A stretch of 64,000 nucleotides of DNA from Bacilli bacterium (GTDB taxonomy: Bacteria; Bacillota_I; Bacilli_A; RFN20; CAG-826), in the NCBI GenBank assembly GCA_045597865.1, contig JAZLKX010000052.1:43017-107016 (forward strand). The letters are read 5' to 3'. The translations under genes were made by a program, and so were the position numbers. Position 1 is the first letter of the stretch; every line of letters begins with the position of its first letter. The notes beneath the pieces are model-generated. The model did no database searches, was not told where the DNA came from, and saw nothing but the letters and a program-made list of their open reading frames with translations. This document shows, one piece after another, positions 1 to 61,676 of this stretch.

Positions 1-542
1 CAAACATTTTGCTTATTAAGCAGATGTACGATGACTTCGTTGATTACGGCTATGACAATTACGAGCTAGAATTGACAAAGATGGGTGGTGATGAAACACC
101 TGATATGTCAGCTCCTGTGTTAATCTCAACATGGCAGTCGCTGCAAAATAAGTCAGCTGACTTCTTTGAAGATTTTGATGCAGTATTCGTTGATGAATGC
201 CTCGCTGGTGATACTTTAATTGAAACAAAAGGAGGAAAAAAACCAATTAAAGATATTAAAGCAGGTGAATTAGTTTTATCATTTAATAATAAAACTAAGG
301 AATTTGAATATAAAGAAGTGCTTGAGACATTTATAAATCACACATCAAGTAAATCAGCTAAAATGATAAAAATAACATTGGAAAATGATGAAACGATTGA
401 AATTACAGAAAATCATCCAGTGTTAACTAAAAATAGAGGTTGGGTTATTGCTGGTGAATTAACTGAAACTGATGAAATTGTTGATGTTAATTTTATAAAT
501 AATACAAAGGATGATTTGAGTGAAGACAAATCAGCTTTATAA
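1..542 (+). CDS. SF2 DExH-box helicase, N-terminal fragment (5' end cut by window) ending in a split-intein N fragment (IntN 198-539)
   Basis: Frame is open from the window edge. Sequence reads ...DAVFVDE, then Cys198 CLAGDTLIET (intein block A) and ITENHPV (TxxH block B). Stop is TAA 540-542. Sequence turns AT-rich from about 230. Confidence 0.8.
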   Translation, partial: NILLIKQMYDDFVDYGYDNYELELTKMGGDETPDMSAPVLISTWQSLQNKSADFFEDFDAVFVDECLAGDTLIETKGGKKPIKDIKAGELVLSFNNKTKEFEYKEVLETFINHTSSKSAKMIKITLENDETIEITENHPVLTKNRGWVIAGELTETDEIVDVNFINNTKDDLSEDKSAL

Positions 543-559
543 ATAAAAAAAATTTTTTT

Positions 560-614
560 GGCGTTTATGATGCTGTTCTTCACTTTAAGCATCATAAACG
601 CCATTTTTTTTTTT
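560..614 (+). terminator. Rho-independent terminator directly after the IntN-encoding fragment
   Basis: Perfect 15-bp inverted repeat ggcgtttatgatgct (560-574) / agcatcataaacgcc (588-602), followed by a T-run at 604-614. Confidence 0.8.
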
Positions 615-626
615 GGAGTGAAGACC

Positions 627-1256
627 ATGAAAAAAGAACAGTTTATTCAAGATTTCTTTAGTATCAGTTTATCTTTAACATTTAATGCTGTTAAGGCATA
701 TAAAATGTTAATAAAATACATTGAGCACGATGTATTTTCAAGATTTCCAGAAATTTATGACGCACTAATAAAAAAATTTTTTTATAGTGATAATTTTTAT
801 TTTAAGAAACTGTATCATAAAATAAATGGATATATTGGCGGGTTCCATCATGAACCTATTAAAGGACACGTACCATGGAATAAAGGTAAAATTGGACGAA
901 TGCCGACTCCATGGAATAAAGGTCTGACTAAAAATACTGATGCACGTTTAAAAAATCTTTCAATAAGTAGGCGTGGTGATAAAAATCCATGTTCATATAA
1001 AAATAAACCTGATAGAACTTTAATGAATGTTAAACAATCTGAAACAATGAAACAAAAAATTCTAAATAATGAATTTACGCCAAAAACATCCAATAGACTC
1101 TGTCATAAAACATTAAAATATAATGGAAAAAATTTTAGATCATCATGGGAAATTATTTTTTATATAATAAATGATGAAAAATATGAATATGAAACAAAAA
1201 GAGTAAAAATACGTGTTAGATGGAAAAACAAAAATTTATATTTCAGATTTTTATGA
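627..1256 (+). CDS. Homing-endonuclease-like protein, N-terminal part (repeated PWNKG nuclease-associated DNA-binding motifs); frame breaks near 1207-1253
   Basis: ATG 627 lies after ggag. Motifs HVPWNKGKIGRMPTPWNKGLTKNTD resemble NUMOD-type repeats of phage HNH/GIY-YIG homing enzymes. AT-rich. Confidence 0.55.
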   Translation: MKKEQFIQDFFSISLSLTFNAVKAYKMLIKYIEHDVFSRFPEIYDALIKKFFYSDNFYFKKLYHKINGYIGGFHHEPIKGHVPWNKGKIGRMPTPWNKGLTKNTDARLKNLSISRRGDKNPCSYKNKPDRTLMNVKQSETMKQKILNNEFTPKTSNRLCHKTLKYNGKNFRSSWEIIFYIINDEKYEYETKRVKIRVRWKNKNLYFRFL

Positions 1257-1479
1257 TAGTGAAACCAACACAATTTTTGAAATTAAACCTGATAGGATGA
1301 TGTATGAAATAAATAAAGCGAAGTATGAACTGATAAAATCCGCATGTATTAAAGAAGGATTTAATTTCATTCATATTGGCGATGAATGGTATGAATATGT
1401 AAAAAATCATAATATGTATTATGATTTTTGTTCAACTAAAATTTCATCAGAAATTATTAAAAAATTTTTTGGACGATAA
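1213..1479 (+). CDS. Homing-endonuclease-like protein, C-terminal part (PD-(D/E)xK / Vsr-like core), +1 frame relative to 627-1256
   Basis: DGKTKIYISDFYDSETNTIFEIKPD fits the Y-x-(P/S)-D-F ... E-x-K restriction-endonuclease-fold pattern. It continues the upstream ORF after a 1-nt frame change. Confidence 0.5.
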   Translation: MLDGKTKIYISDFYDSETNTIFEIKPDRMMYEINKAKYELIKSACIKEGFNFIHIGDEWYEYVKNHNMYYDFCSTKISSEIIKKFFGR

Positions 1480-1482
1480 AAA

Positions 1483-2385
1483 ATGAAAATTAAAAAAATT
1501 GAAATCATTGAAAAACCTGAAGAAGTTTATAATATATCTGTTAAGGATAATGAAAATTATGTTGCTAATGGTATAGTCGTTCATAATTGCCACGGCTCTC
1601 AAGCAAAGAAACTGTTTGGTATCATTGGTCATTGTGTAAATGCAAGAATCAAGATTGGAACAACAGGTACATTACCCACAGATGCAGCAGAACTGTTAAA
1701 AGTGCAGTCTGTGCTTGGTAGCGTTATCTTTGAACTTAAATCAAAGGAACTAATTGACCAAGGTGTTCTCACACAGTTGCAGATAGCAAATGTTATTCTT
1801 AAGTATCCGCTTGAGTTTATCATGGCTAACAAAGGTAGAGCTTATCAGGAAGAGGTAAGATTGGTAGAGGATTATAGCGGGAGAAACAAAGCGCTAGAAT
1901 TCATTCTTCATCATACCCCTAGCGACCATAATATACTAGTGTTAGTCAATCATATCAAACATTTAAATGATATTAAAAAGTGGTGCGAGGAAGCTTTCCC
2001 TGAACGCGAAGTAAATATCATCAGCGGCGCAGTCAAAGGTAAAGAACGCGATGAAATTCGCGTAGGCGTTGAAAATAAAAACGGACTTATTCTGCTTGCA
2101 ACATATCAGACGATGTCAACTGGTGTAAACATACCTAAGTTGCACGATGTCGTGCTATATGCAAACAGTAAATCAAAGATCAAGGTGCTTCAGTCAATAG
2201 GTCGTGGTCTTAGAAGACATGTTACCAAGAATAAGATCGTGCTTTATGATATTGTTGATGACTTATCATATCAGACAAGCAGAGGTCGTGTTGTTGAAAA
2301 CTACTTATTGAAGCATTGGAAAGAACGACTTGAGTATTATAAGGAACAAGAGTTCCCATTCATATCAACCTCAATTAACATATAA
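1483..2385 (+). CDS. Split-intein C fragment (IntC 1483-1587, 35 aa) fused to the helicase C-terminal fragment
   Basis: MKIKKIEIIEKPEEVYNISVKDNENYVANGIVVHN|CHGSQAKK. Helicase motifs TTGT (III) and QSIGRGLRR (VI) are present. The ORF has its own ATG 4 nt after the endonuclease stop. Confidence 0.85.
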   Translation: MKIKKIEIIEKPEEVYNISVKDNENYVANGIVVHNCHGSQAKKLFGIIGHCVNARIKIGTTGTLPTDAAELLKVQSVLGSVIFELKSKELIDQGVLTQLQIANVILKYPLEFIMANKGRAYQEEVRLVEDYSGRNKALEFILHHTPSDHNILVLVNHIKHLNDIKKWCEEAFPEREVNIISGAVKGKERDEIRVGVENKNGLILLATYQTMSTGVNIPKLHDVVLYANSKSKIKVLQSIGRGLRRHVTKNKIVLYDIVDDLSYQTSRGRVVENYLLKHWKERLEYYKEQEFPFISTSINI

Positions 2386-2392
2386 ATAAAGT

Positions 2393-4183
2393 ATGGATCC
2401 TACAGTATTTTTCTATGATTGGAATTATGATCATACCAGCCATTTTTGGCCAGGTCTTATCTATTCTGAAGATAAGCGTCCGTATTGCCGTCCTGATTTA
2501 ACTGACGATGAACGTGAAAACGATGACGACGACGGCGATACACAATTTAATGACGATGATACGCGTGGTAGTACTTATTTGACTGCCAACATACTTGATG
2601 GACAAGGTGCATACCAAAATAGCGATTTACTTACATATGTAAAACTATCATCCGCTTCACAAGGTATTGGATGGTCAGATGCAAATGCAGTATGGTATGA
2701 TACTGTTTTAATGAAAGGTTCCGATACTGAAGTTTATTTTTATGATGTAGAAAACTATATTATATGTGGTATAGATGAATCTGGTGAAGTTTTAGATTTT
2801 ATTAACTGTACATCTAAGAATTTGACTTGGAATGCTACGACAAAAAGATTCCAATTTACGTATAATGGTCGTTCATACGATCTGTATAGTTCTAAGGCAG
2901 TCAATGGTACATACAATAGAGTAAATAACTTAGCAACATTCGCAGCTGATGGCGCTATCGTTTTGTTTATACCACCTTCTGTAGGCAATATCAATACGGT
3001 TGGCGTTAAGTATAAAAAGAAAAGCACTGGTGATGATGTATACGCAATTCGTCATGCTGTTGAAATCGTTGCTATGTACGCTGATGTCATGGAAGTTGAC
3101 CGTTTAAATGTTTATTCAACTACCCCAGAACTATCAGCAAATGGCAAAATTGAAAAAGTACAGTTTCATAAGTCAGCTTGGACGTATAATTCACGTAAGG
3201 TTTGGGTAAAGGATTTACGAAAAACATATCCACCTAATCTTGATGATAAAACTACTGCTGAAGATGTACTTAACAACGCATTGGCCGAGCCAACGAATCC
3301 TTGGAAGACACCTGATGAATTCTACAGCGACTGGAAACCAACTGAAACGATTGTAAAAGGACCGAATGGATTTGTTAAAGCATTTAGCCGTATCTTTGGT
3401 AAGAAGTATAAGACGTATAAGATTAAGGAAACTATGCCTGTTTGGTTCTGGTGTAATACTTTACGTAACTGGTGTACTTTTAAACACACTAAGCATCATA
3501 CTCTTGAGCTATTTTTATGGAATGGTATGAATGGATGGGATCCTGCAACTAAGATAATTTTACCTGTTAAGAAACGCAGAGAGGTTTTAGCAAAATACTT
3601 ATATGATGTAAAGCGATTCATCCGCGGGCCTTTCATTAGTGCACGTATCAACTATAATAACATGTATTATGCATGGCGCTCAATTAAGCTATCTGACGAT
3701 ACTAAGTTCTCACAATATGATGAAGACAGTTTTCAGACTGTTAAGCTTGGTAAAACATATCTAAACAACAAAGGTACAAGAAGATATCCATTCTCCATTG
3801 GTATTCCTCCTATCTTTAGAACTGTTGCGGGCGAAATTTGTTTGCTTTATTATCTGCGTATACCTGGTATGCAGTGGTGGTCTGACTTAATCTATAAAGA
3901 ACATGTTGATTTTATCAACTCAGTTTGCCAAGCTTACTTTGGCAAGGGTGAAGATAAGACCATCAATCAACATTGGAAGAGATATACATTCGTTAAAGAC
4001 ATTTCTGAAGAATATGCCAATGAAGTAATTACTGATGAAAAGTCAACGCTGATTTATAAGCCAGAAATAAATACAATACGTGAAGATAATGAAGTACTTA
4101 ACATTTCATTCACAATACCGCGTCAGTATTTTGAAACGCTGAACGGCACAGATGAATCTTATGTTGAGGAATGGAGTAGATAA
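2393..4183 (+). CDS. Hypothetical protein, possible virion/tail component
   Basis: 596-aa ORF with an acidic N-terminal tract (DDERENDDDDGD). No catalytic motif recognised. It directly abuts the giant fibre-like gene. Confidence 0.6.
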   Translation: MDPTVFFYDWNYDHTSHFWPGLIYSEDKRPYCRPDLTDDERENDDDDGDTQFNDDDTRGSTYLTANILDGQGAYQNSDLLTYVKLSSASQGIGWSDANAVWYDTVLMKGSDTEVYFYDVENYIICGIDESGEVLDFINCTSKNLTWNATTKRFQFTYNGRSYDLYSSKAVNGTYNRVNNLATFAADGAIVLFIPPSVGNINTVGVKYKKKSTGDDVYAIRHAVEIVAMYADVMEVDRLNVYSTTPELSANGKIEKVQFHKSAWTYNSRKVWVKDLRKTYPPNLDDKTTAEDVLNNALAEPTNPWKTPDEFYSDWKPTETIVKGPNGFVKAFSRIFGKKYKTYKIKETMPVWFWCNTLRNWCTFKHTKHHTLELFLWNGMNGWDPATKIILPVKKRREVLAKYLYDVKRFIRGPFISARINYNNMYYAWRSIKLSDDTKFSQYDEDSFQTVKLGKTYLNNKGTRRYPFSIGIPPIFRTVAGEICLLYYLRIPGMQWWSDLIYKEHVDFINSVCQAYFGKGEDKTINQHWKRYTFVKDISEEYANEVITDEKSTLIYKPEINTIREDNEVLNISFTIPRQYFETLNGTDESYVEEWSR

Positions 4184-7100
4184 ATGAGTTCCGTTGTATT
4201 TAATGCGTTTAAACAAAGATTTCTAAATGGTGAAGTTCCTAAAAATGATACATGGACATTTCTACCGGTAAATAAAAAGTTTAATAACACATTCGTTCGT
4301 ACACAGGACGAATTTAAGCTTGAGCAGTTTCGTTCACTTAGCGATTTATTTGACCATAACTTTGATGCAATGAATAATTCATACTTTGAAGGTATTCGCA
4401 CAGACTATGATTGGTATAAACCATTAGATACAAGCGGAACATCTAAACCGATGTTCATCACATCCGGTGTTTTTGATAAAGATGGCAACCAATTATCAGC
4501 AAGTAACTGGGAAGATTTTCAGAAGACCGAATTTTATAAAGATGTTTCAGGCAACCGCGATGTAAATACTTATCTTGCATCAGGTGGTTTTTATTACATC
4601 CTAAAGAAAGATGAACTTCGTTGGTTTGCTGACCGAGTAAATTCAGGCAATAATAGAATCATCGGCGTTTTGGGTGATGGCATTGACGGTGTTATTCATG
4701 GGCAGATTGGTAAATCTGAAGATTACCCATTCCAAGGCGTATTTGATGGCAATGGCCACGCTTTAGAAGATGTCACTGTTATCTGTGATAATGATGATAA
4801 TGGTCTTATTGGTATCTTAGGTTCGGAAGGTACAGTTAAAAACATCAAACTTATTAACAATCAAGGATTTTTAGATGATCCTGATAACGTTTCATTGAAA
4901 TGTGAAAAACTAATTGACATAAATCATATCAAGAAGAATGGCCGAGACGTTAATGCAGGCGTTCTTGTTGGCCGTAACTATGGACATATCGTAAACATCG
5001 ATGCACATGAATTAGGACAGTTCCGTTTTTCAGGTTTCGTACCACAGGTATATTCAGTAACAAACAAATCTGATAACTATAATGATTTTTCTACCATTCG
5101 TTCTAAGTTTGACGAAGGCGAAAATATGTATTACCTAAATTCCTGGTGTATCAATTCACCAGGAAATGTTTGCCCGTATGTTGGCTATTTTGCTGAAGGT
5201 CTTTTTGCACAATCGGCTAGAGGTTATGCGTATTCAACTGATGATGCTACTACAGCTACTATTCATTGCATTGAATCTTATCCAACACTAAAATCAAAAT
5301 ACAATGCTGGTATATGCGATGCAACGTTGGACTTATCATCTGGTATGACGAGATTTGGATTCTTCGTCAAGGCTGCTGCGGATCAAGGCATTTACAAGGA
5401 CGGCGGTGAACATGATGCTGAACGAAAGGCATGTTTAACCGATCCGCTTTATTATCAGTACGCTGATACTGAGTGGGGAACAAACTGTGTACTTTTCTTA
5501 GGTTATACTGGTAAAGATGAACTGGGCAAAGACATTAAATACTTTATTGAGATTAACGGTACTGCTTATGATAAGAAGGCAAAGAAAGGACAACGCCGTT
5601 ATTATTTCCATGCTGGACATTTTAACTATAAGAAAAATTTAACTTATAAAGTTCTAGGAAGCAACTTTAATAGCTGGGGTGAAAACTGGGGCGATGATAG
5701 TGATGACGATAGCCTGTCACGAAAATACTATTATCCTTTAGGTGATGGCGATAAGTACGCTATTAAGTGCGCGTTTGTATTTTCAAATGGCGAGGATGAT
5801 GCTGAAACAAATGATGATGATGGCATTAGCGATGAAGACTTTGAAGTAAATGATAATGATATCCGCGTTTATACTGCTGACGGTATTCCTGCTAAGATTG
5901 TGTCATTTGACTGGACTGCTCTACGATGGACGCCATTGAATAAAGATACATCAAGTTCTGTATGGAATGATATTAAGTATAAATTGCATATTAGAAAAGG
6001 CGTTTATTATTATGGCGGTACTATTATTGACAACTCAGATATATCACAACCAGGTAAACCCAGAACATGGCTATTCTTCTTTGTTGTTAACGAAGAAAAT
6101 CCAACTGTAACAAAAGACAGCAAGGATGACGCTGGTATAGGTTTACATTCAGCCTTGAATTTTGAAGAATATGACACTGAAACACACTGGTGTGGAACGG
6201 CAACGAATAAAGGGCGCTGGGCGTATTATGATGAAGAATTGTCAGTTGAAGATGCGTATAAAAAAGCATGCAACGGCGATTTTGGTATGGCAGTTCCTGA
6301 AGCAATGCGTTCAGCTTTAACTGATGCAGCGTCTGTTAAAATTGCAGATGACGCTTGTGCTGAAAAATCTTATATGTTCCACTGGGAATATGAAAAGAAT
6401 ACTACTGGACCTAATCACTACGCAACAAAAATTCTTGTTGACGATTCTGATAAGTCAGACCTTAGCGCGTATTTATCGCATCGTCAAGAGACATGGAAAG
6501 ACGGTGTACATTTTAATGGTTTGCATAAGTATGATATGCTAGTAAACAGTAATGTGTATGCTGCGGGTACAATGGTATTGACTTTATTGCAAGTTTCTGA
6601 TTTTCAGTATCGTCCATTTGTGCATGCATCTGAAACTGATAATTTAGTTTATGTAAATGAAACAGATCCAACTACATGGAAAAGTAATCCATCTTTATTC
6701 CCAGGTGCACGTTTTGGTGATGTTTCTGGAATTTATGGTTTTGCTCCAACCTTGCAGTATTTTACTGACGCTGCGCGTCGTTATGCAATGAATCCAAATT
6801 ATTACGGATTAGACGTTGATGGTTTCTGGACTACAAACTGTGTTCGCCCAGATCCTGAGAACGATCCTTGGAAAAACCAACATACAGGCCGTGAAAGCTG
6901 GATTTCAACTCTGAACTTTAACTGGAATATCATGCGCCACATGTTTGATACCGAAAATGATTATTATAAGCGCATGGCTGAATATGACCAGGTTAATGAT
7001 CCTGAGCCATACCGTTATGATACACACATTGAAATGCATAACCAATTTATGCCGCCCGAGGTTTATAAAGGTCTTGACTTTACTGATGAAAAGTATTTTA

Positions 7101-9340
7101 AGTCGGACTTGCCACATGCAATTTTAAACAAGCCACTGCGCATGAATAACATGGCTCGTGCTGCATACTACATTTCACCAATCGTTGGTGCCAATTATGG
7201 ACGCATTCAACACGTAGTTGTTAGCTCTGAACGAACTAATGTTGGAAACTTTGTTGGCTTTATTGGTTCTATTGCTGGTAAACAGGAACGTGGCTTTGTT
7301 GACTTCTGCTCAGTATACGCAAAGGATAAGTTTAAATACTTTGAAAATGAACCTGTGAAACCCAATTATGATACTATGGACGAATCTGCTTTCTCAGCTG
7401 CAATGGCTAAGTATGATGATGCTTGCCGTAATTACAACTATCAGGTACGCTATAAAACGACACCTATCATGCCAGCAACAGTTTCAGAAGCAGTTCAGAC
7501 ATTAACAGAAAATCCTGATTTTGATTGGAAAGATTATGAATACTATCCGAAAGGCAGCGATACAAAAATTGATGAAGATGAATACAGTGCAGTATCGTCT
7601 AATCCTATTCTGACGAAGGATTACCTTAATAAGATAGGAGTAATTAGATATATTGATACAGACTCAAAAACTGATTGGATAAATGCTGGATTTAAGGTAT
7701 ATACTAAAAATCCTGACTACATCTATGATAAAGCATTCTTTGACGCATCTGCTCCAATTCGTGCATTTACATCAGCATGGTATGATGACTACAATGTTAC
7801 AGCTGAAAATGTAATGGATGATGTTGTTACTTATAAGCTACGTCCGATCTTTAATGCAGGTGGCTTGTTTGGTAAAGTTGTGCCAACTTATAATATGAAT
7901 ACGCTTGACATAACTGGACTTATGCCAATGTCCGGTACAACATTCCAGAACTGTAACGTACATTACATACTTGATGATGCCGTACCTGAAGCACAAATAA
8001 CTGATGTTACTTTGTTGTCAGCATACTCAAAAGATATTCATGATACATTTGGCGCTATTGCTGGTTTGCTGGAAGTACAGACATCAGAAACATGCCAGTG
8101 GAATAAAAACGTAAATAACTCAATTGTGTTGAATGAAATAAACGTATCTGCCCAATGCAATGCAAATGAACCTGTACTTGCTTTTGGTTTCATGTCGTAT
8201 CAGCCTAATGAGCTGCCTTCTGTAGTTGCTACTGAAGGTTCACCTCGTCAAAAAGCAGGTACACACGCAGGCGAATATACTGAAACTACTTACGCTATTG
8301 ATTTACCTATTGTGATTAACAATAATGTTGGTGGTTCACGCCACCGAATGTCATACGCACCTATTAACCAATCATCAGCAGCGTTCTTTGCATTTTCAGA
8401 TAACAAATATCCTACGTATAATGATGTCATTTCTGGTGAAAGTTCAAAAATGTATATGCAGGATATTGTGGATAATGTTTTCATTACCAATGGCAACGTG
8501 AATGTTAATAACTCAGCAATTACTTACTGCAACCCATCTGCTTTGACAATTTACATGGGTAAACGTGGCCCACTTAGTGTTGACAGTACATTTGGTTCAA
8601 ATACTACATTCATTCCAGCTATGCCAACATTGCCTAATGAAAACGCATCAGCTTATTCAACGATTTCACTTGTAAAGGAACAGCTTGATAACCCGGTAAA
8701 CACAAGAACGTATTGTGTTGCTCATAGTGAACTTGCTGCTGATGTTAATAAGTTCCATAAAACAACTAACTTCTCACCTATCAACATTGACTGTTTAAAG
8801 AATTCTGAGATCTTTAAGAAACAAGACGTTGTAGATATTTACTTTGACTATACATATTCTTCTAAGAGTGCATTTGTGGATGACTGGTCATTCACGCAAG
8901 ATGTAAAGTTCACATCAGCACTTGATGTTGATAAGCATAACAGAGGTATTAAGCCGAATGACAACAACATTAGACTTGGATATGTATTCCGTGATGAACT
9001 GAATTATTCGGGTAATGGTTTCTGGTATAATAATAACTATCTACACTTAGGTAATTCAGTTTCACCTAAGCACATTAGAACCAAACTTGCACCGTCTGGT
9101 GCTCATCTGTATACTTCCGGTGCTGCAGGCTATTACTATAATAATGAAGGTGAACTTGTTTCTGCAAATGATGAGCATTCATTCGGCGGATTCTTGGTAC
9201 TTGACTCTCAAGAACGAACAATAATGTTTATAGATAATACGTCAGGTGCGAAAATTGAGGACGGCGGTTCATATAACCTACAGTGCTCACCTGTTGTTTA
9301 TGACGGCACATCTGGCGGCTTGCTATTAGAGGTTAAGTAA
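4184..9340 (+). CDS. Giant (1718 aa) fibre/adhesin-like structural protein with a beta-helix (GLUG-like) segment
   Basis: Uninterrupted ORF with a TAAATG junction to the upstream gene. Contains FQGVFDGNGHALEDVTVICDNDDNGLIGILGSEGTVKNIKLINN and D/E-rich inserts. Confidence 0.65.
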   Translation: MSSVVFNAFKQRFLNGEVPKNDTWTFLPVNKKFNNTFVRTQDEFKLEQFRSLSDLFDHNFDAMNNSYFEGIRTDYDWYKPLDTSGTSKPMFITSGVFDKDGNQLSASNWEDFQKTEFYKDVSGNRDVNTYLASGGFYYILKKDELRWFADRVNSGNNRIIGVLGDGIDGVIHGQIGKSEDYPFQGVFDGNGHALEDVTVICDNDDNGLIGILGSEGTVKNIKLINNQGFLDDPDNVSLKCEKLIDINHIKKNGRDVNAGVLVGRNYGHIVNIDAHELGQFRFSGFVPQVYSVTNKSDNYNDFSTIRSKFDEGENMYYLNSWCINSPGNVCPYVGYFAEGLFAQSARGYAYSTDDATTATIHCIESYPTLKSKYNAGICDATLDLSSGMTRFGFFVKAAADQGIYKDGGEHDAERKACLTDPLYYQYADTEWGTNCVLFLGYTGKDELGKDIKYFIEINGTAYDKKAKKGQRRYYFHAGHFNYKKNLTYKVLGSNFNSWGENWGDDSDDDSLSRKYYYPLGDGDKYAIKCAFVFSNGEDDAETNDDDGISDEDFEVNDNDIRVYTADGIPAKIVSFDWTALRWTPLNKDTSSSVWNDIKYKLHIRKGVYYYGGTIIDNSDISQPGKPRTWLFFFVVNEENPTVTKDSKDDAGIGLHSALNFEEYDTETHWCGTATNKGRWAYYDEELSVEDAYKKACNGDFGMAVPEAMRSALTDAASVKIADDACAEKSYMFHWEYEKNTTGPNHYATKILVDDSDKSDLSAYLSHRQETWKDGVHFNGLHKYDMLVNSNVYAAGTMVLTLLQVSDFQYRPFVHASETDNLVYVNETDPTTWKSNPSLFPGARFGDVSGIYGFAPTLQYFTDAARRYAMNPNYYGLDVDGFWTTNCVRPDPENDPWKNQHTGRESWISTLNFNWNIMRHMFDTENDYYKRMAEYDQVNDPEPYRYDTHIEMHNQFMPPEVYKGLDFTDEKYFKSDLPHAILNKPLRMNNMARAAYYISPIVGANYGRIQHVVVSSERTNVGNFVGFIGSIAGKQERGFVDFCSVYAKDKFKYFENEPVKPNYDTMDESAFSAAMAKYDDACRNYNYQVRYKTTPIMPATVSEAVQTLTENPDFDWKDYEYYPKGSDTKIDEDEYSAVSSNPILTKDYLNKIGVIRYIDTDSKTDWINAGFKVYTKNPDYIYDKAFFDASAPIRAFTSAWYDDYNVTAENVMDDVVTYKLRPIFNAGGLFGKVVPTYNMNTLDITGLMPMSGTTFQNCNVHYILDDAVPEAQITDVTLLSAYSKDIHDTFGAIAGLLEVQTSETCQWNKNVNNSIVLNEINVSAQCNANEPVLAFGFMSYQPNELPSVVATEGSPRQKAGTHAGEYTETTYAIDLPIVINNNVGGSRHRMSYAPINQSSAAFFAFSDNKYPTYNDVISGESSKMYMQDIVDNVFITNGNVNVNNSAITYCNPSALTIYMGKRGPLSVDSTFGSNTTFIPAMPTLPNENASAYSTISLVKEQLDNPVNTRTYCVAHSELAADVNKFHKTTNFSPINIDCLKNSEIFKKQDVVDIYFDYTYSSKSAFVDDWSFTQDVKFTSALDVDKHNRGIKPNDNNIRLGYVFRDELNYSGNGFWYNNNYLHLGNSVSPKHIRTKLAPSGAHLYTSGAAGYYYNNEGELVSANDEHSFGGFLVLDSQERTIMFIDNTSGAKIEDGGSYNLQCSPVVYDGTSGGLLLEVK

Positions 9341-10266
9341 TGTATTGGTCAGCTGAAAATCCTAAATACGTGTTTCCTGCATATAAGTATGCTTTAGGAA
9401 CAAACGAAATTACAGGGTATAATGAAAATAACATTGCCTTGTCTTTCGTTACACAAGATGTAACTGCAATAACAAATAAAAACTTCTGGACACGTGACTG
9501 TGCATCGCCGTTCCTTCGTTATTCAGCGTTTTGGTTTGTGCCGGATAATGCAATTCAGTTCGCTGACACTTATTTGACAAATGTTACGACAGGATCGGTA
9601 AATAAAGACACTGATACATCATCAACTTATTCATATCAGTACATGACAAATACCGAACCTGAATACTATCTTTTTACGAAGGGTCTTAAAGGTCGTGAAA
9701 GATACATTTCAGCATGTCAGCTGATTAAAGATTTGGACTATGATGTAAATGCGTTTAACGAAGTTGTTTATGTAAAAGGTTCAAAAGGCATTAAAGGAAC
9801 TGTGCCTGGAAGAAAGGCTCAGTATTTGACTCGTGAATACAACTTGTCAGGCATTTATAGCCAGGATCTTTATCGTGAGCTAAACATACCGGAAGACAAT
9901 ATCATTGAAGACTTGGTATTTTATCGTCCAGCAGAATCACTTGAATTTCAGGATCGTGATGATTTGGTTGAAAAACGACTTAAAGACTATGTAAAGATAA
10001 ATAAGATCGTCGCCACAAAAGGAAGCAAAGGCTTCAAAGGCATTAAAGCTAAGAAAGGTATTGTGAACCCAAATAATAATGTTTATTATTCTGGACGAAT
10101 ACTGGAATATGGTGCTCGCGGTTTTATTCTTTCATACACTGATGATAATCATGTTGGCGGCGGAATGATTCCTATGACTTACTATGAATTTCCTAACCCG
10201 ATTTACTCAAACATGGATTACATCAAGATTAACTGGAACACAAACGGTTTCATTGAGGTGAAGTAA
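9340..10266 (+). CDS. Hypothetical structural protein (308 aa)
   Basis: ATG overlaps the upstream stop (TAATG). Duplicated Lys-rich motif KGSKGIKG / KGSKGFKG. The 308-aa plus 258-aa pair has the sizes and order I recall for T4 neck proteins gp13/gp14, but homology is not verifiable by eye. Confidence 0.55.
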   Translation: MYWSAENPKYVFPAYKYALGTNEITGYNENNIALSFVTQDVTAITNKNFWTRDCASPFLRYSAFWFVPDNAIQFADTYLTNVTTGSVNKDTDTSSTYSYQYMTNTEPEYYLFTKGLKGRERYISACQLIKDLDYDVNAFNEVVYVKGSKGIKGTVPGRKAQYLTREYNLSGIYSQDLYRELNIPEDNIIEDLVFYRPAESLEFQDRDDLVEKRLKDYVKINKIVATKGSKGFKGIKAKKGIVNPNNNVYYSGRILEYGARGFILSYTDDNHVGGGMIPMTYYEFPNPIYSNMDYIKINWNTNGFIEVK

Positions 10267-11042
10267 TGGCGATAGACTATAAAAAGTTTCCGTGGCTTTG
10301 CCCGACAACAGGTTATGACTTTAATCAAGGTGAAGAAAGTTCAATAGCCGGAAATATCGTTAAGGATTCTGAATCTGTTACATCGGAAGAAACAACAACT
10401 GATGCGTACGGCAAGTTTGGTTTAAAGCTGCTTTACTATAAAGTATCATTGGACACTCAAAAGGATGAGATTTACGGCGAAGATACTTTGCATATGATTG
10501 AGCGTTCATTTTACTTTAACGGCTATGTTGAACAAATCCCACCTAATGTAAGAACTTATCAACTTGAAGGTATATGGGGTGAAGATGTTATCACAATGTA
10601 TGTTGGAAAGACTGCATTTAAGTATTGGTCAACATACGGCGGCGAAGACAGGAACACGCCGGAAGTATTTGATGACATTGAGCCAAGGATCGGTGATGTA
10701 ATCTATTTTGAAGTCAATGATACCTTTTATGAAATCCGCGATGTAAAGAATTGGTCAGACGCATTTGGTCTTGCACAACACACTTACACAATTACTCTTA
10801 AGGTGTATAAAGATACAAAGATGACCATTGATACTGATAATGAAACTTTGAAAGATATCAATGACCCAATTTATAAAGTCGCTTCAAGCAAGCTTAGGGA
10901 AGCAGAACCTATGCATGACGACTTGTCAATAAATAGGTATCTTGAGGAAATTACAAAAGAAGGCGGCACGGAAGCAATGAACCCGCTTTGGGAAGACAGA
11001 AGTCAAGGCGAAACACGAATTGACCCATTTGACGGCTGGTAA
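10266..11042 (+). CDS. Hypothetical structural protein (258 aa)
   Basis: ATG overlaps the upstream stop. It is the last gene of the structural-looking block and is followed by a 250-nt regulatory gap. Confidence 0.55.
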   Translation: MAIDYKKFPWLCPTTGYDFNQGEESSIAGNIVKDSESVTSEETTTDAYGKFGLKLLYYKVSLDTQKDEIYGEDTLHMIERSFYFNGYVEQIPPNVRTYQLEGIWGEDVITMYVGKTAFKYWSTYGGEDRNTPEVFDDIEPRIGDVIYFEVNDTFYEIRDVKNWSDAFGLAQHTYTITLKVYKDTKMTIDTDNETLKDINDPIYKVASSKLREAEPMHDDLSINRYLEEITKEGGTEAMNPLWEDRSQGETRIDPFDGW

Positions 11043-14447: not shown

Positions 14448-14472
14448 AAACATTCATTTTCAAAATTGACTA

Positions 14473-14520
14473 TTTACAGGACGGGTAAATGTTTTTAAAT
14501 TTTACTCGTAAACAAAAATA
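14473..14520 (+). promoter_or_regulatory. Class-I promoter P2 plus leader
   Basis: TTTACAG-N16-TAAATTTTACTCGTAAACAAAAATAA. Confidence 0.65.
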
Positions 14521-14532
14521 AAGGAAACAACT

Positions 14533-15783
14533 ATGGAAATTCTCACAAAAGAGTTCACCGAACATTATCCGCAGATTATCACCCATCGTACTGACACTGA
14601 CTTCTATAAGTACACGATGCAGTATGTGATTTGGCGTATGTGTCCGTCTATCAAGTCGCACTGGAAGTTCAAGGTTCGCTCTGCTCATGCAAAGACTGCA
14701 TGGCTTACTGATGAAATCAATTATCAGCTTGACCGTGTAGCTGAACTGATGCACACCCAGGAAGAACTTGACTTCCTCGGCAACATTCCGTGGTTCACTC
14801 CTGAATTTATTGAACATCTTGAAGATCACCGCCTCAAGCGTAAGTATATCCGCTGCTGGGCGGATCTTGAAAAGGATGAAGTTTGTATTGAAGCAGAAGG
14901 TCCGGAATTGAATGTTCAGTGGTGGGAAATCTATGTTCTTGAAATCGTTCAGGAACTTTGGATGAGCAAGGCACCTCGTGATTATGACTGGGCCGATAAG
15001 GAACTGACGAAGACCATTGAAACTTACAATGCTCTTTATGAAAAGAAGCCTTTCACCCTTGCAGATTTTGGCTGCCGTCGCCGTGACTCTAAGAATTGGC
15101 AAGCACATGTGATTGAACGCTTGATGCGTGAATGCAAGGCTTTCGTTGGAACCTCCAATGTTTACTTCGCAATGAAGTACGGTATCAAGCCGATTGGTAC
15201 TTATGCACATCAGATGGAAGCTCTTACCCAGGGACTTGATGACGTGCCTTTGGCAAAGTCTCAGGAAACTGTTTGGGAATGGTGGACAAAGGTCTATCGC
15301 GGAAACTTGGGTATTGCTTTGTCTGACAACTTTGGCTTCAAGGCATTCCTCCGCAACTTTGACCTTTACTACAAGAAGTTGTTTGACGGTTGCCGTCACG
15401 ACTCTGGTAACCCGTTCACTTGGGGCGACATGCTTATTGACGCCTATAAGGCAGATAAGATTGACCCGCTGACAAAGACAGGTGTCTGGTCCGACGGCCT
15501 TGACCGTAATGATGTGGTTAAGATTGTTGACTACTTCTATGGCCGCATTAAGGTTTCCATTGGCCAGGGCGGCTACTTGATGTCCAGAACTATTCCGCCT
15601 ACTTACGAAGTTCAGCCGCTTAAGATGGTTATGAAGGTGATTGAAGTAAACGGTAAGCCGGTTGTCAAGCTTTCCGATGAACCGGGCAAGACGATGTGCG
15701 AAGATCAGTCCTTCGTTGATTACGCAAAGAAGGTCTATAAGTATGAACCGTTGACCGTAGAACACTACGACCACGAGATTTAA
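14533..15783 (+). CDS. pncB: Nicotinate phosphoribosyltransferase
   Basis: Collinear with E. coli PncB as I recall it: TDFYKYTM, ADFGCRRR, VGTSN, GTYAHQ, GIALSD, RHDSGNP, KLSDEPGKT. Confidence 0.9.
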   Translation: MEILTKEFTEHYPQIITHRTDTDFYKYTMQYVIWRMCPSIKSHWKFKVRSAHAKTAWLTDEINYQLDRVAELMHTQEELDFLGNIPWFTPEFIEHLEDHRLKRKYIRCWADLEKDEVCIEAEGPELNVQWWEIYVLEIVQELWMSKAPRDYDWADKELTKTIETYNALYEKKPFTLADFGCRRRDSKNWQAHVIERLMRECKAFVGTSNVYFAMKYGIKPIGTYAHQMEALTQGLDDVPLAKSQETVWEWWTKVYRGNLGIALSDNFGFKAFLRNFDLYYKKLFDGCRHDSGNPFTWGDMLIDAYKADKIDPLTKTGVWSDGLDRNDVVKIVDYFYGRIKVSIGQGGYLMSRTIPPTYEVQPLKMVMKVIEVNGKPVVKLSDEPGKTMCEDQSFVDYAKKVYKYEPLTVEHYDHEI

Positions 15784-15795
15784 ACTGGAGTCTCT

Positions 15796-16014
15796 ATGAA
15801 ACATTTGAAAGTATTGTGCCTATACTTCTTCATCTGTGCTTTAAATGCAGCGATGAGCGTAGCAACGGTGCCAGCATGGGCAATGCTAATTTTATCAGCG
15901 TTGTTCTACTGTACTATATGGGATCTATGCTCATATATGTTTACTGGCACTATGTGTTGGTATGATTTTGTGAAACAGATTGTCAAAAAGTTAAAACCCA
16001 AGGAGAAACCATGA
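15796..16014 (+). CDS. Small membrane protein
   Basis: Two hydrophobic helices, Cys-rich. Confidence 0.5.
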   Translation: MKHLKVLCLYFFICALNAAMSVATVPAWAMLILSALFYCTIWDLCSYMFTGTMCWYDFVKQIVKKLKPKEKP

Positions 16015-30539: not shown

Positions 30540-30724
30540 CTTAATCCTCCTCACGAATAATTTCGCGTAAAATGCCTAGAATCACAAAAGTCCAAACTAT
30601 CACATTCATCTCACTTTATTTATTTGGTATTTTTATAAATAATTTACGAGGATGATTAAGGTTGCTTGGCTAAATAATCACGGCACTTACTTTTGAATAA
30701 ATACATTAAAAGGAGTTTTAACAG

Positions 30725-32692: not shown

Positions 32693-32890
32693 ATGTCACC
32701 ATTACTTTTGGTCATAACACTTTTCATCTATCAGATTCTGGCACAGATCATCGGCGCGGGCGCAGCTAAAAAGGCAGCAACGAACGGCGATAAAGTAAAC
32801 ATGCTACATTTGGCCGGATTTTACTATGCGTGGCAATTTATCTTTCAGCTCATATTCGTGATTGTTTTAAGTCAGCTAGGTGTGATATAA
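32693..32890 (+). CDS. Small membrane protein (2 TM)
   Basis: Hydrophobic 65-aa ORF after aaaggaag. Confidence 0.5.
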   Translation: MSPLLLVITLFIYQILAQIIGAGAAKKAATNGDKVNMLHLAGFYYAWQFIFQLIFVIVLSQLGVI

Positions 32891-32921
32891 ATAACATACC
32901 AAAAATTAAGGAGAAATCAAA

Positions 32922-60560: not shown

Positions 60561-61676
60561 ATGGCAAATAAATTAGTCGCTAAATTCAAGAAAGAAAAAG
60601 CCTTCGCTGACATTTTGGCAGCAGACAACATTGAGGATGAATTCCTCAGTACGAACTGCGCATCAGTTAACTTGCTGTTCAGCGGTAAGCTTGATGGCGG
60701 TATTAAGAAAGGCAAGATGAATACCATCTGTGCTGATTCTGGCTGGGGTAAGTCGCTTATTGGTTTGAATGTTTTGGCAAATGCGTACCGTGCTGGAATG
60801 ACCTGCGTGGTAATTGATACAGAAAACGCATTTAATACACAGCTTGCAGCATCACTCGGCATTGACATTGATGATATCTTGCTTTTCAGGACTTCACGTA
60901 TTCCTGAAATTAAACAGATTTATGCTCGCATCAACCATGGCCTAACTCGTGCAGAATCTCGTGAGATCTTCGTTCTTCTTGATTCTTGGGGTCCTATTGT
61001 TGAAGAACAGGTTATGGAAAAGGCTGAAGAAGCAAGTTCTGCAGTTAACATGAGCGCGGCTAAGTTCAAGAACGAACTTGCTAATATCATTAACGCTTGT
61101 GGAAACACATCTTTCATTGTTAACCATGTGTATGAATCTCTTCAGATGTATGGCGAAAAGTTTGCTATTCCTGGTGGTAAGAGATTGTTCTTCAACTCTG
61201 ACGCTATCGTTCTTGCAAGCTCTGCTGCAAAGGCAAAGGACAAGGAAGGTAATGTTTATGGCAAGGTAATTACCGCTTCCGTTAAGAAAGGACGTGCTGC
61301 TAAGGAATTTTCTAAGACTAAGTTCTTGATTGAACATTCTGGCGGTATTAACCCTTACTTTGGTCTGCTTGAAGATGCAGTTGCTGCAGGCGTTGTGATT
61401 AAGCCAAAGCCAGGTCGCTATACTCGTCCTGAATATGATACTGATGGACGCGAATGGAAGGAAGAAGAATTGTACTGTGCTAAATTCTGGATTCCTCTTT
61501 ACAAGAACGAAGACTTCATCAAGTTCGTTGAAAAGAAATTTGCCTTTGAAGATACTCAGCTTATTTCTTCTGTTGAGAATATCATGGATCTTATGAATCT
61601 TGATGAAAGCCAGTTGAGCGAAAAGACACTTACGGCTGAAGAAGACGATACGCCGTATGATCCTGACGAAGACTAA
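60561..61676 (+). CDS. uvsX: UvsX-type RecA-family recombinase
   Basis: Walker A DSGWGKS. GGINPYFGLLEDAVAAGVVIKPKPGRYTRPE parallels T4 UvsX GGIDPYSGLLDMALELGFVVKPKNGWYAR. AKFWIPLYKNEDF parallels TTFWGPLFKHQPF. Confidence 0.85.
   Translation: MANKLVAKFKKEKAFADILAADNIEDEFLSTNCASVNLLFSGKLDGGIKKGKMNTICADSGWGKSLIGLNVLANAYRAGMTCVVIDTENAFNTQLAASLGIDIDDILLFRTSRIPEIKQIYARINHGLTRAESREIFVLLDSWGPIVEEQVMEKAEEASSAVNMSAAKFKNELANIINACGNTSFIVNHVYESLQMYGEKFAIPGGKRLFFNSDAIVLASSAAKAKDKEGNVYGKVITASVKKGRAAKEFSKTKFLIEHSGGINPYFGLLEDAVAAGVVIKPKPGRYTRPEYDTDGREWKEEELYCAKFWIPLYKNEDFIKFVEKKFAFEDTQLISSVENIMDLMNLDESQLSEKTLTAEEDDTPYDPDED

Follow-up and report, generated by a model that had tools for sequence, protein, structure and literature searches.

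Positions 1-2385 of the 64,000-nt stretch analysed here (contig JAZLKX010000052.1, assembly GCA_045597865.1; the whole stretch is called the window) hold the interrupted gene of a superfamily 2 (SF2) helicase, identified below as uvsW, together with the insert that interrupts it. A helicase N-half, of which the 3' end lies in the window, continues into an N-terminal intein fragment (IntN) and stops; a spacer and a nuclease gene follow, and a second helicase open reading frame (ORF) begins with a C-terminal intein fragment (IntC) and carries the remaining extein (Table 1). The window comes from an uncultured, large phage with T4-type genes (a gp43-like polymerase, UvsX, DNA ligase and RNA ligases), whose polymerase is about 28% identical to its best cultured-phage match, in cyanophages. 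Relatives are cited by L-numbers for contigs and P-numbers for proteins, both from a metagenomic/assembly collection.

Table 1. Features of the interrupted uvsW locus, in window coordinates.
Feature	Position	Strand	Details
UvsW N-extein, 3' end	1..197	+	65 codons, frame 3; ends VFVDE (motif II); phrog_16259 'DNA helicase', 1.4e-39
IntN, 114 aa	198..539	+	Cys1 198-200; block A 198-236; block B 402-422; stop TAA 540-542
TATAAATA, T4-type late-promoter consensus	538..545	+	overlaps the IntN stop codon; candidate promoter of the nuclease gene
Hairpin and T11	559..614	+	16 bp (559-574/588-603), 13-nt loop, T11 604-614
GGAG Shine-Dalgarno	615..618	+	8 nt before nuclease ATG 627; flanked by paired segments in the extended fold
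Nuclease gene, 5' part	627..1209	+	frame 3, runs on to TGA 1254-1256; phrog_22417, 7.3e-17; phrog_15427 'endonuclease', 2.5e-13
A5 run with +1 frameshift	1205..1209	+	L010 and L004 have A4 and an intact ORF of 283/288 aa
Nuclease gene, 3' part	1210..1479	+	frame 1; stop TAA 1477-1479; phrog_22417 positions 202-277
IntC, 35 aa, MKIKKIEIIEKPEEVYNISVKDNENYVANGIVVHN	1483..1587	+	block F VYNISV 1525-1542; block G ...VVHN 1576-1587
UvsW C-extein	1588..2385	+	Cys+1, CHGSQAKK...; stop 2383-2385; phrog_9690, 4.3e-74; Pfam Helicase_C

The broken uvsW gene and its intein halves

The N-extein, in an ORF that is open at the left edge of the window, reads ...STWQSLQNKSADFFEDFDAVFVDE up to nt 197, where ...DAVFVDE ends, and the break in uvsW falls in motif II, precisely between DE and CH. 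Motifs III (TTGT, 1660-1671) and VI (QSIGRGLRR, 2191-2217) lie in the C-extein. When joined, the exteins matched T4 UvsW (PDB 2OCA) at 7.6e-54 over query residues 4-330, the N-extein of the window aligning from residue 169 of 2OCA on, and the junction was free of gaps, with FGMMMNDECHLATGKS against FDAVFVDECHGSQAKK (core MMNDECHLATGK / VFVDECHGSQAKK). The PHROG families of the N-half (phrog_16259) and the C-half (phrog_9690) are both annotated 'DNA helicase', and their profiles include intein parts. The full 345-aa N-half of L010 differs from the window N-extein at 1 of 65 residues (M/L), and the UvsW_N domain, in a region outside the window, was found in P0001, an uninterrupted relative, and in L010 and L004, whose N-halves are complete. 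Because the joined exteins match T4 UvsW without a gap at the junction, the host protein is, judged by alignment, UvsW, a T4-type SF2 helicase; in T4 this enzyme unwinds R-loops and branched DNA or recombination intermediates. The exteins are under purifying selection, with a ratio of non-synonymous to synonymous rates (omega, Nei-Gojobori) of 0.009-0.09, and between the window and L010 they carry 34 synonymous and 2 non-synonymous changes. The first-pass annotation of this DNA had correctly called the gene an SF2/DExH helicase, an identity now narrowed to UvsW specifically; its placing of the cut at DE|CH, with a DECH box recreated by joining the exteins, agrees with both the coordinates and the T4 UvsW alignment, and the alignment of the exteins to an intact helicase that it had proposed is gap-free for T4 UvsW and for P0001, the natural intein-less allele, too.

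The insert begins directly after ...VDE with a TGC codon for Cys1. IntN starts CLAGDTLIETKGG, in which CLAGDTLIET forms block A, passes ITENHPV, and ends ...DEIVDVNFINNTKDDLSEDKSAL; the TxxH of block B is T70-E-N-H73 of IntN, and (T/S)xNH is kept in more than 40 homologous N-halves. On the other side, ATG 1483 opens a 300-aa ORF 3 nt after the nuclease stop codon, IntC ends ...NGIVVHN (1567-1587), and ...IVVHN|C at 1573-1590 places Cys+1 at 1588; HN|C or SN|C stands in all retrieved split C-halves. Block A at C198, the TxxH of block B, the stop at TAA 540 and the 114-aa length of IntN, as well as the separate ATG 1483, the 35-aa IntC and the +1 Cys followed by CHGSQAKK, TTGT and QSIGRGLRR, had all been named in the first pass and proved correct when re-checked.

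Hidden Markov models of the Hint/intein type gave matching results on the two halves. In the N-half, Pfam PT-HINT scored 43.9 bits (cut-off 27.7) and Hint 41.7 bits (cut-off 29.7), both above cut-off, and Intein_splicing scored 30.1 and 31.4 on the separate halves, under its cut-off of 35.8 as expected for halves; in the C-half, positions 122-155 of the 155 in Intein_splicing, its end, matched residues 2-35. Searched as one chain against the PDB, IntN plus IntC matched 2LWY, a bacterial intein-like (BIL) domain, at 1.7e-12, NrdJ-1 at 2.8e-11, DnaX at 5.6e-10 and gp41-1 at 1.9e-5, in alignments that start at Cys1 (residue 1-3 of the solved inteins) and run through HN. IntC is 100% identical in L010 and 93% in L004, and omega between the window and L004 is 0.23 for IntN and 0.03 for IntC. 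A single-sequence AlphaFold2 (AF2) model of the fused halves had a mean predicted local distance difference test score (pLDDT) of 35 and was unusable. With all canonical residues present, the two halves are by their motifs those of a class-1 intein that is predicted to splice.

A PHROG outside the uvsW families also touches IntC. Window IntC (1483-1590) matches phrog_18112, a 'recombinase' profile of 207 positions, over the initial 36 of them (1.8e-4), and the intact UvsX of the window (60561-61676) matches the remainder of the profile. Since IntC matches its start and UvsX its rest, phrog_18112 appears to consist of intein-split UvsX/RecA C-halves, and a PHROG of this kind thus seems to exist in other phages.

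The empty site and relatives of the insert

The uninterrupted allele lies on contig L003 and encodes P0001, a 496-aa UvsW that reads ...DFDAVFVDECHGSQAKKLFGIIGHC... (DFDAVFVDECHGSQAKK). P0001 differs from the window C-extein at 1 residue, and the exteins are about 99.5% identical. At the DNA level L003 is 98% identical to the window over 1-199 and 95-97% on the C side (1574-2429), holds no counterpart of window 198-1587, and its alignment breaks at 197/198 and 1587/1588; the empty site, at L003 3340-3400, reads ...GTATTCGTTGATGAATGTCACGGCTCTC..., with GTATTCGTTGATGAATGTCACGGCTCTCAAGC as the intein-less site. Because the alignment breaks on both sides and nothing in L003 matches the insert, the insert boundaries are fixed to within the TG shared by both Cys codons. 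As a separate observation, the last codons of IntC (ATAGTCGTTCATAATTGC, IVVHNC; 1574-1590) resemble those of the N-extein (GTATTCGTTGATGAATGC, VFVDEC; 184-200), and blastn placed the empty-site allele on both segments; the resemblance may be accidental, or the two segments may form a short direct repeat able to favour precise loss.

The 1.39-kb insert (198-1587) has 25.4% GC against 39.1% and 38.3% in the two exteins and 39% in the whole window, bearing out the first-pass remark that it is much AT-richer than its surroundings. Between the window and L010 the insert is 99.6% identical (1379/1385 nt, 6 substitutions), against 97.0% and 96.2% for the exteins (36 substitutions in 995 nt). Between the window and L004 it is 89% identical overall (IntN 94%, spacer 98%, IntC 93%, nuclease 86%), against 76% for the exteins, and the synonymous divergence (dS, Nei-Gojobori) is 0.18 for IntN, 0.40 for IntC and 0.45 for the nuclease, against 1.58 for the C-extein and a saturated value for the N-extein. 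By these synonymous divergences, at least 4-fold lower, the insert is clearly younger than the host gene. Since the window exteins are slightly closer to those of intein-less L003 than to those of intein-bearing L010, the distribution of the insert among alleles departs from the host-gene tree. Because the insert is AT-rich and far less diverged than the exteins, the pattern is what one expects of a homing element, which would have entered diverged alleles by recombination. No other intein or nuclease copies were found in the 64-kb window.

A word-indexed search with fused IntN and IntC returned 3 proteins only and was uninformative, so an exhaustive search of representative proteins with IntN was used instead, which gave 5247 matches at E<=1e-3. 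Among the best 150 of these (50%-identity clusters), at least 34 are helicase N-halves with Walker A that end 95-135 aa after DEC, and about a dozen more are truncated versions. The three-gene arrangement of the window recurs in L010 and L004, and likewise in cultured phages, namely S16 (gp114/114.1/115) with its relatives, and PM2. In other relatives the identical site holds a contiguous mini-intein (P0264, ...VDECFHGDT...VVHNCHGSKA..., and P0236) or IntN and the nuclease are joined in one frame (P0215, P0313, P0323, P0287 and P0271), and in L008, L009 and L011 such a fusion is followed by a separate IntC ORF. The fractured-gene, split-intein interpretation of the first pass is supported across these computational tests, trans-splicing itself being a prediction from them; its remark that such layouts are known mainly from metagenomes does not hold for this one, as the same uvsW split is present in the GenBank phages S16 and PM2 and in PHROGs 16259 and 9690.

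Megablast of 1-2400 against GenBank phages gave no match. Distant blastn against them aligned only 137 nt, in PM2; the window phage has no close cultured relative there. The window C-half was not on record in an exact-sequence look-up. In 1-3000 Rfam gave only two matches, both at chance level (E >0.5), and the presence of a group I intron or another RNA element was rejected. No description of UvsW with a split intein was found in the searchable literature, and papers on UvsW and inteins do not cover the element; as far as found, it is present in public data yet apparently undescribed.

Three groups of relatives show further breaks in uvsW. In L012 (4324-5819) and L013, which have no window counterpart, uvsW lies in three overlapping ORFs with no insert and no intein, and a frameshift falls exactly at motif II: ...VFVDEVH|RK* is followed by ...YIGSKAS in the +1 frame, DEVH replaces DECH, and there is an extra C. 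This form was seen on 11 contigs and in a 57-sequence cluster (P0045), and its break could be a scar or an escape mutation at the homing site, a tolerated two-chain helicase, or recoding. In L014 (2001-6933), from a phage that is abundant in the collection (102 blocks), uvsW is in at least 3 pieces: behind N-half-IntN, the nuclease and the IntC-C-extein, the RecA2 domain is broken again, the 267-aa middle piece has a tail unlike helicase, and two unrelated genes (274 and 385 aa) precede the remaining ...IVLIATYGIFQQGINIKSLRHL... piece. In L016 (998-2974; GCA_029935835.1) the uvsW N-half has a second, contiguous intein in Walker A (..SATAC...THN|SGKSL..) with faint LAGLIDADG-family Pfam matches, and the split intein at DE|C is also present; by these two, inteins sit in both nucleotide-binding motifs of one gene.

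The nuclease gene and its upstream spacer

The endonuclease-like gene that the first pass had placed between the halves is present, with its own Shine-Dalgarno (SD) sequence and start codon; in the window it is not one ORF, owing to the +1 frameshift at 1205-1209. It is read as two overlapping ORFs, 627-1256 (frame 3) and 1213-1479 (frame 1), which match phrog_22417 consecutively, the first at 77-199 and the second at 202-277. The 5' part holds two NUMOD3-like PWNKG motifs (870-887 and 906-923), RSSWE (1137-1151) and YEYETKR (1182-1202) behind a poorly conserved N-terminal region; the 3' part holds the catalytic D in ISDFYD (1240-1257) and the ExK in FEIKP (1276-1290). Removal of one A gave a 283-aa protein 99% identical to P0121, which L010 encodes intact. 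The window copy is either a freshly inactivated nuclease or the product of a homopolymer base-call error, two readings that cannot be told apart because all other insertions and deletions (indels) between the window and L010 also lie in homopolymers (A or T runs). Programmed frameshifting at the A5 was rejected, because a run of this length is too short for it and the gene is a plain ORF in relatives. Over the longer distance, window against L004, nuclease omega is 0.23, and by this measure the gene would therefore have been functional until recently.

Among 40 aligned homologues, R171, S172, S173, W174, E175, E189, R192, D207 and E218 are invariant, K220 is nearly invariant, and there is no conserved His. 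Pfam NUMOD3 (PF07460) and Tn7_TnsA-like_N are present in many homologues; on the window fragment Tn7_TnsA-like_N scored 19.3 bits, under its cut-off of 26.5. Signatures of the GIY-YIG, HNH and LAGLIDADG families had no Pfam match in either nuclease fragment, and a marginal PHROG 'HNH endonuclease' match (0.0069 over 32 residues) covers the NUMOD3 repeat. In the PDB, phmmer with the repaired nuclease found no match even at E<=10, and a profile search matched weakly the DNA-binding domain of I-TevI (0.018) and T7 endonuclease I (1M0D, 0.031), the latter along YEYE...Y.PDF...E.K. The AF2 model of P0121 has a pLDDT of 79 as a whole, rising above 90 in the nuclease domain; with this model Foldseek ranked first 3R3P, the catalytic domain of I-Bth0305I (probability 0.99, E 9.8e-3, TMt 0.52), placed TnsA (1F1Z/1T0F) at ranks 4-6, and 1VSR at rank 42. 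Because the homologues share an invariant E...D...ExK and have no conserved His, the protein is better described as NUMOD3 modules joined to a putative canonical PD-(D/E)xK core of the TnsA or T7-endonuclease-I-like kind, with predicted nuclease activity. Homologues only 38-39% identical (P0137 and P0143) still directly follow the UvsW IntN in L014-L017, the contigs with P0137 occurring in 102 collection blocks; because of this persistent linkage, the nuclease lineage and the uvsW intein allele appear to travel together.

Between IntN and the nuclease lies an 87-nt non-coding spacer composed of the motif that overlaps the stop codon, an A-run, the hairpin, T11 and GGAG. The hairpin is a perfect 15-bp stem, GGCGTTTATGATGCT/AGCATCATAAACGCC (560-574/588-602), with one flanking U-A pair; its fold has a dG of -33.3 kcal/mol (z = -6.8), and none of 200 shuffles was as stable, so that the hairpin and T-run reported at 560-614 in the first pass are confirmed by folding. 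A terminator scan had missed the hairpin, the 13-nt loop exceeding its 8-nt limit. The region is 98-100% conserved in L004 and L010. Pairing is possible between the T-run (604-614) and the A-run ahead of the hairpin (544-552), and in read-through RNA the A-run together with CUUUAU (535-540) can pair with the U-run and GUGAAG (618-623) around the SD. The hairpin and T-run could be either an intrinsic-terminator-like element or a translational-control element.

A motif and hairpin upstream of fracturing endonuclease genes are likewise described, and for mobE of phage Aeh1 late-promoter transcripts and occlusion of the ribosome-binding site by a hairpin in read-through RNA were reported (PMC2677866). 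By hypothesis, and by analogy with these, TATAAATA, the hairpin/T-run and the SD probably restrict nuclease expression: as with mobE, a transcript that starts just after TATAAATA would lack the occluding 5' strand. A sigma-70 promoter scan showed no excess of promoter-like sites. TATAAATA may be the late promoter of the window's phage. Its copies in the window, all on the + strand, stand at 494-501, 538-545, 2381-2388, 26288-26295, 30634-30641 and 32886-32893, three of the six just upstream of ORF starts (26315, 30725 and 32922).

Proposed splicing and homing, and comparison with known systems

Taken together, we consider it highly probable that this is a fractured uvsW gene in a distantly T4-like phage, with motif II split by a mobile element of IntN, nuclease and IntC. 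Two polypeptides would be made, an N-extein-IntN of about 345 aa (its last 179 aa encoded in the window) and an IntC-C-extein of 300 aa, and the association of IntN with IntC would form a HINT fold that splices the two proteins in trans. The reaction would open with an N-S acyl shift at Cys1 and proceed through trans-thioesterification to Cys+1, cyclisation of IntC Asn35 and an S-N shift, giving a 496-aa UvsW with its DECH box restored and the junction peptide ...AVFVDECHGSQAK. Insertion in an essential catalytic motif would tolerate only exact excision. By analogy with homing endonucleases, the nuclease most likely acts in homing on intein-less uvsW alleles: it would cut such an allele in co-infection, and repair would copy the whole element, after which the occupied allele would no longer have the nuclease site.

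Several points weigh against this account. Splicing and nuclease cleavage of uvsW split inteins, here or elsewhere, rest on sequence inference, and the 5' part of uvsW (about 650 nt; about 166-231 aa) lies outside the window and is known only from relatives. The nuclease ORF is broken in the window, so this copy may no longer home, and the fold matches of the nuclease are weak, the best standing at E 9.8e-3 and none at E<=1e-3. The six copies of TATAAATA in the window, against 4.8 expected, are not a significant enrichment. An efficient terminator at the T-run would oblige the C-half to use its own promoter, and none was identified; a nuclease frame that ends at 1256 would also lose any translational coupling into the IntC ORF, where the SD is weak.

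Among other explanations, the intein halves might not splice and instead serve as a non-covalent dimerisation module for a two-chain UvsW, comparable to the mobE-split NrdA of Aeh1. Unligated split genes do work in T4-like phages (PMC2677866), and the frameshift-broken uvsW of L012/L013, at the same motif without an intein, hints that unligated pieces might be tolerated. Against this, the residues needed for the chemistry only (Cys1, TxxH, the penultimate His, the terminal Asn and Cys+1) are kept across more than 40 diverged clusters, the IntC omega of 0.03 speaks against a role in dimerisation alone, and with the break inside DECH an unligated 149-residue HINT domain would occupy the ATPase site, which together make this explanation improbable. 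A contiguous (cis) intein of the ordinary kind that carries its endonuclease in frame, the stops and frameshifts being sequencing or assembly errors in homopolymers, would account for the confinement of the window/L010 indels to A or T runs, for the in-frame IntN-nuclease in L008, L009, L011, P0215, P0313 and P0323, and for L004, where altering a single base in an A-run would join nuclease and IntC into one ORF. It is very unlikely in view of the 87-nt spacer (TAA, hairpin, T-run and SD), which L004 and L010, two contigs from independent samples, have kept, and of the IntC ORF, which stands apart in all relatives examined, the finished S16 and PM2 genomes among them. The stop after IntN and the separate IntC start recur in independent assemblies (L004 and L010) and in cultured phages (S16 and PM2); because of this recurrence they do not look like an assembly artefact, which argues against the stop at 540 being that of a mis-sequenced cis-intein. 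Decay of the whole locus to a pseudogene, the helicase inactivated by insertion and UvsW dispensable, has the frameshifted nuclease and the frameshifted uvsW of some relatives in its favour and is hardly credible with exteins under strong purifying selection, both helicase ORFs intact, and helicase motifs and intein residues conserved.

The fractured uvsW with its split intein joins a known class, whose architecture is not itself new. It shares with the fractured genes of Dassa et al. 2009 (gp41-1, NrdJ-1, IMPDH-1 and NrdA-2 among others; PMC2677866) the order extein-IntN, endonuclease, IntC-extein, the break at the usual endonuclease-insertion position of the intein, phage origin, a host enzyme of DNA metabolism and, as sequence elements, a hairpin and TATAAATA upstream of the endonuclease gene. 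In those genes, as in L004, S16 and PM2, the endonuclease ORF overlaps the IntC start, whereas the window has a 3-nt gap. The enzymes listed by Dassa et al. comprise gp41, IMPDH, DnaE, NrdA, NrdJ, ligase and terminase, with no UvsW or SF2 helicase (PMC2677866), and UvsW and the DE|CH point lie outside the eight enzyme types listed there; the window endonuclease further differs in being neither GIY-YIG nor Vsr-like and in its frameshift, and splicing here is deduced from sequence. What is modestly new is thus the host gene with its insertion site and the candidate canonical PD-(D/E)xK/NUMOD3 nuclease partner.

The closest cultured counterparts are S16 gp114/gp114.1/gp115 (HQ331142) and PM2 (MF001355), which have the same uvsW split at DE|CH and share PHROGs 16259, 22417 and 9690 with the window. 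Identity to the window is 48% for IntN, about 40% for the middle protein and 34-36% for IntC with the C-extein, and the phages are only distant relatives of the window phage. In both, the three ORFs overlap without spacer or hairpin, the N-terminus of the middle protein is Cys-rich, and the annotation reads helicase, hypothetical protein, helicase (uvsW_1 and uvsW_2) rather than intein. The next-closest IntN of cultured phages, 42-46% identical over 98 aa, are those of the Campylobacter phages CPt10, CP20 and IBB_35, where IntN ends a truncated host gene, fractured nrdA for the ribonucleotide reductase alpha subunit, and is followed by a 'hypothetical protein'; the IBB_35 record is annotated 'intein' (PMC3322345).

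I-Bth0305I of the EDxHD family (PDB 3R3P; PMC3239194) shares with the window nuclease a NUMOD-type N-terminus, a C-terminal nuclease with a predicted restriction-endonuclease fold here, and the fractured-gene niche. The EDxHD family is defined by a His general base of the Vsr type (Taylor et al. 2011, PMC3239194), whereas the window nuclease family has E...D...ExK, in which the Lys is invariant, and lacks any invariant His; by alignment its active site departs from the defining feature of EDxHD. It also differs from I-Bth0305I in having NUMOD3 rather than NUMOD2, the fold match between the two is weak (E 9.8e-3), and sequence searches match T7 endonuclease I and TnsA instead.

Conceptually the locus adds nothing new, and its value is incremental. 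Even so, among the relatives the stages at one site include the empty site, the freshly invaded allele whose nuclease is intact, the broken nuclease, the IntN-nuclease fusion and the contiguous mini-intein, which offers a population-level view of the intein/homing-endonuclease life cycle with an unusually complete set of intermediates. The gene-breaking model of Dassa et al. becomes directly testable on it, and practically so, since the split is also present in phages in culture, S16 of Salmonella and PM2 of Proteus. Motif II (Walker B/DExH) of an SF2 helicase joins the ATPase catalytic motifs targeted by inteins. The dozens of diverged, probably mutually orthogonal split-intein pairs, with a 35-aa IntC and a CH(G/L) C-extein context, are potential ligation tools, and the nuclease may be a two-domain PD-(D/E)xK enzyme with a long target. 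A bolder reading, which we hold possible without quite favouring it, is that a so far uncharacterised NUMOD3 plus D...ExK homing-endonuclease lineage has co-evolved with one intein allele, passing through all gene-breaking stages at one site, and that the IntN-nuclease fusions are a new kind of split intein; if true, where IntC is a separate ORF, the endonuclease would be part of the N fragment of the split intein itself.

Beyond the locus, the genes downstream of uvsW (2393-11042; 596, 1718, 308 and 258 aa) had no Pfam or PHROG match except a weak head-closure match on the last. Their DNA is only 68-83% identical to L003 and L010, against 95-98% for uvsW, and the divergence jumps at the uvsW stop codon. 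Further on, a minus-strand ORF at 14470-15804 (444 aa), which had no PHROG match, overlaps almost completely a plus-strand ORF at 14533-15783 (416 aa), an arrangement that is unusual at 39% GC.

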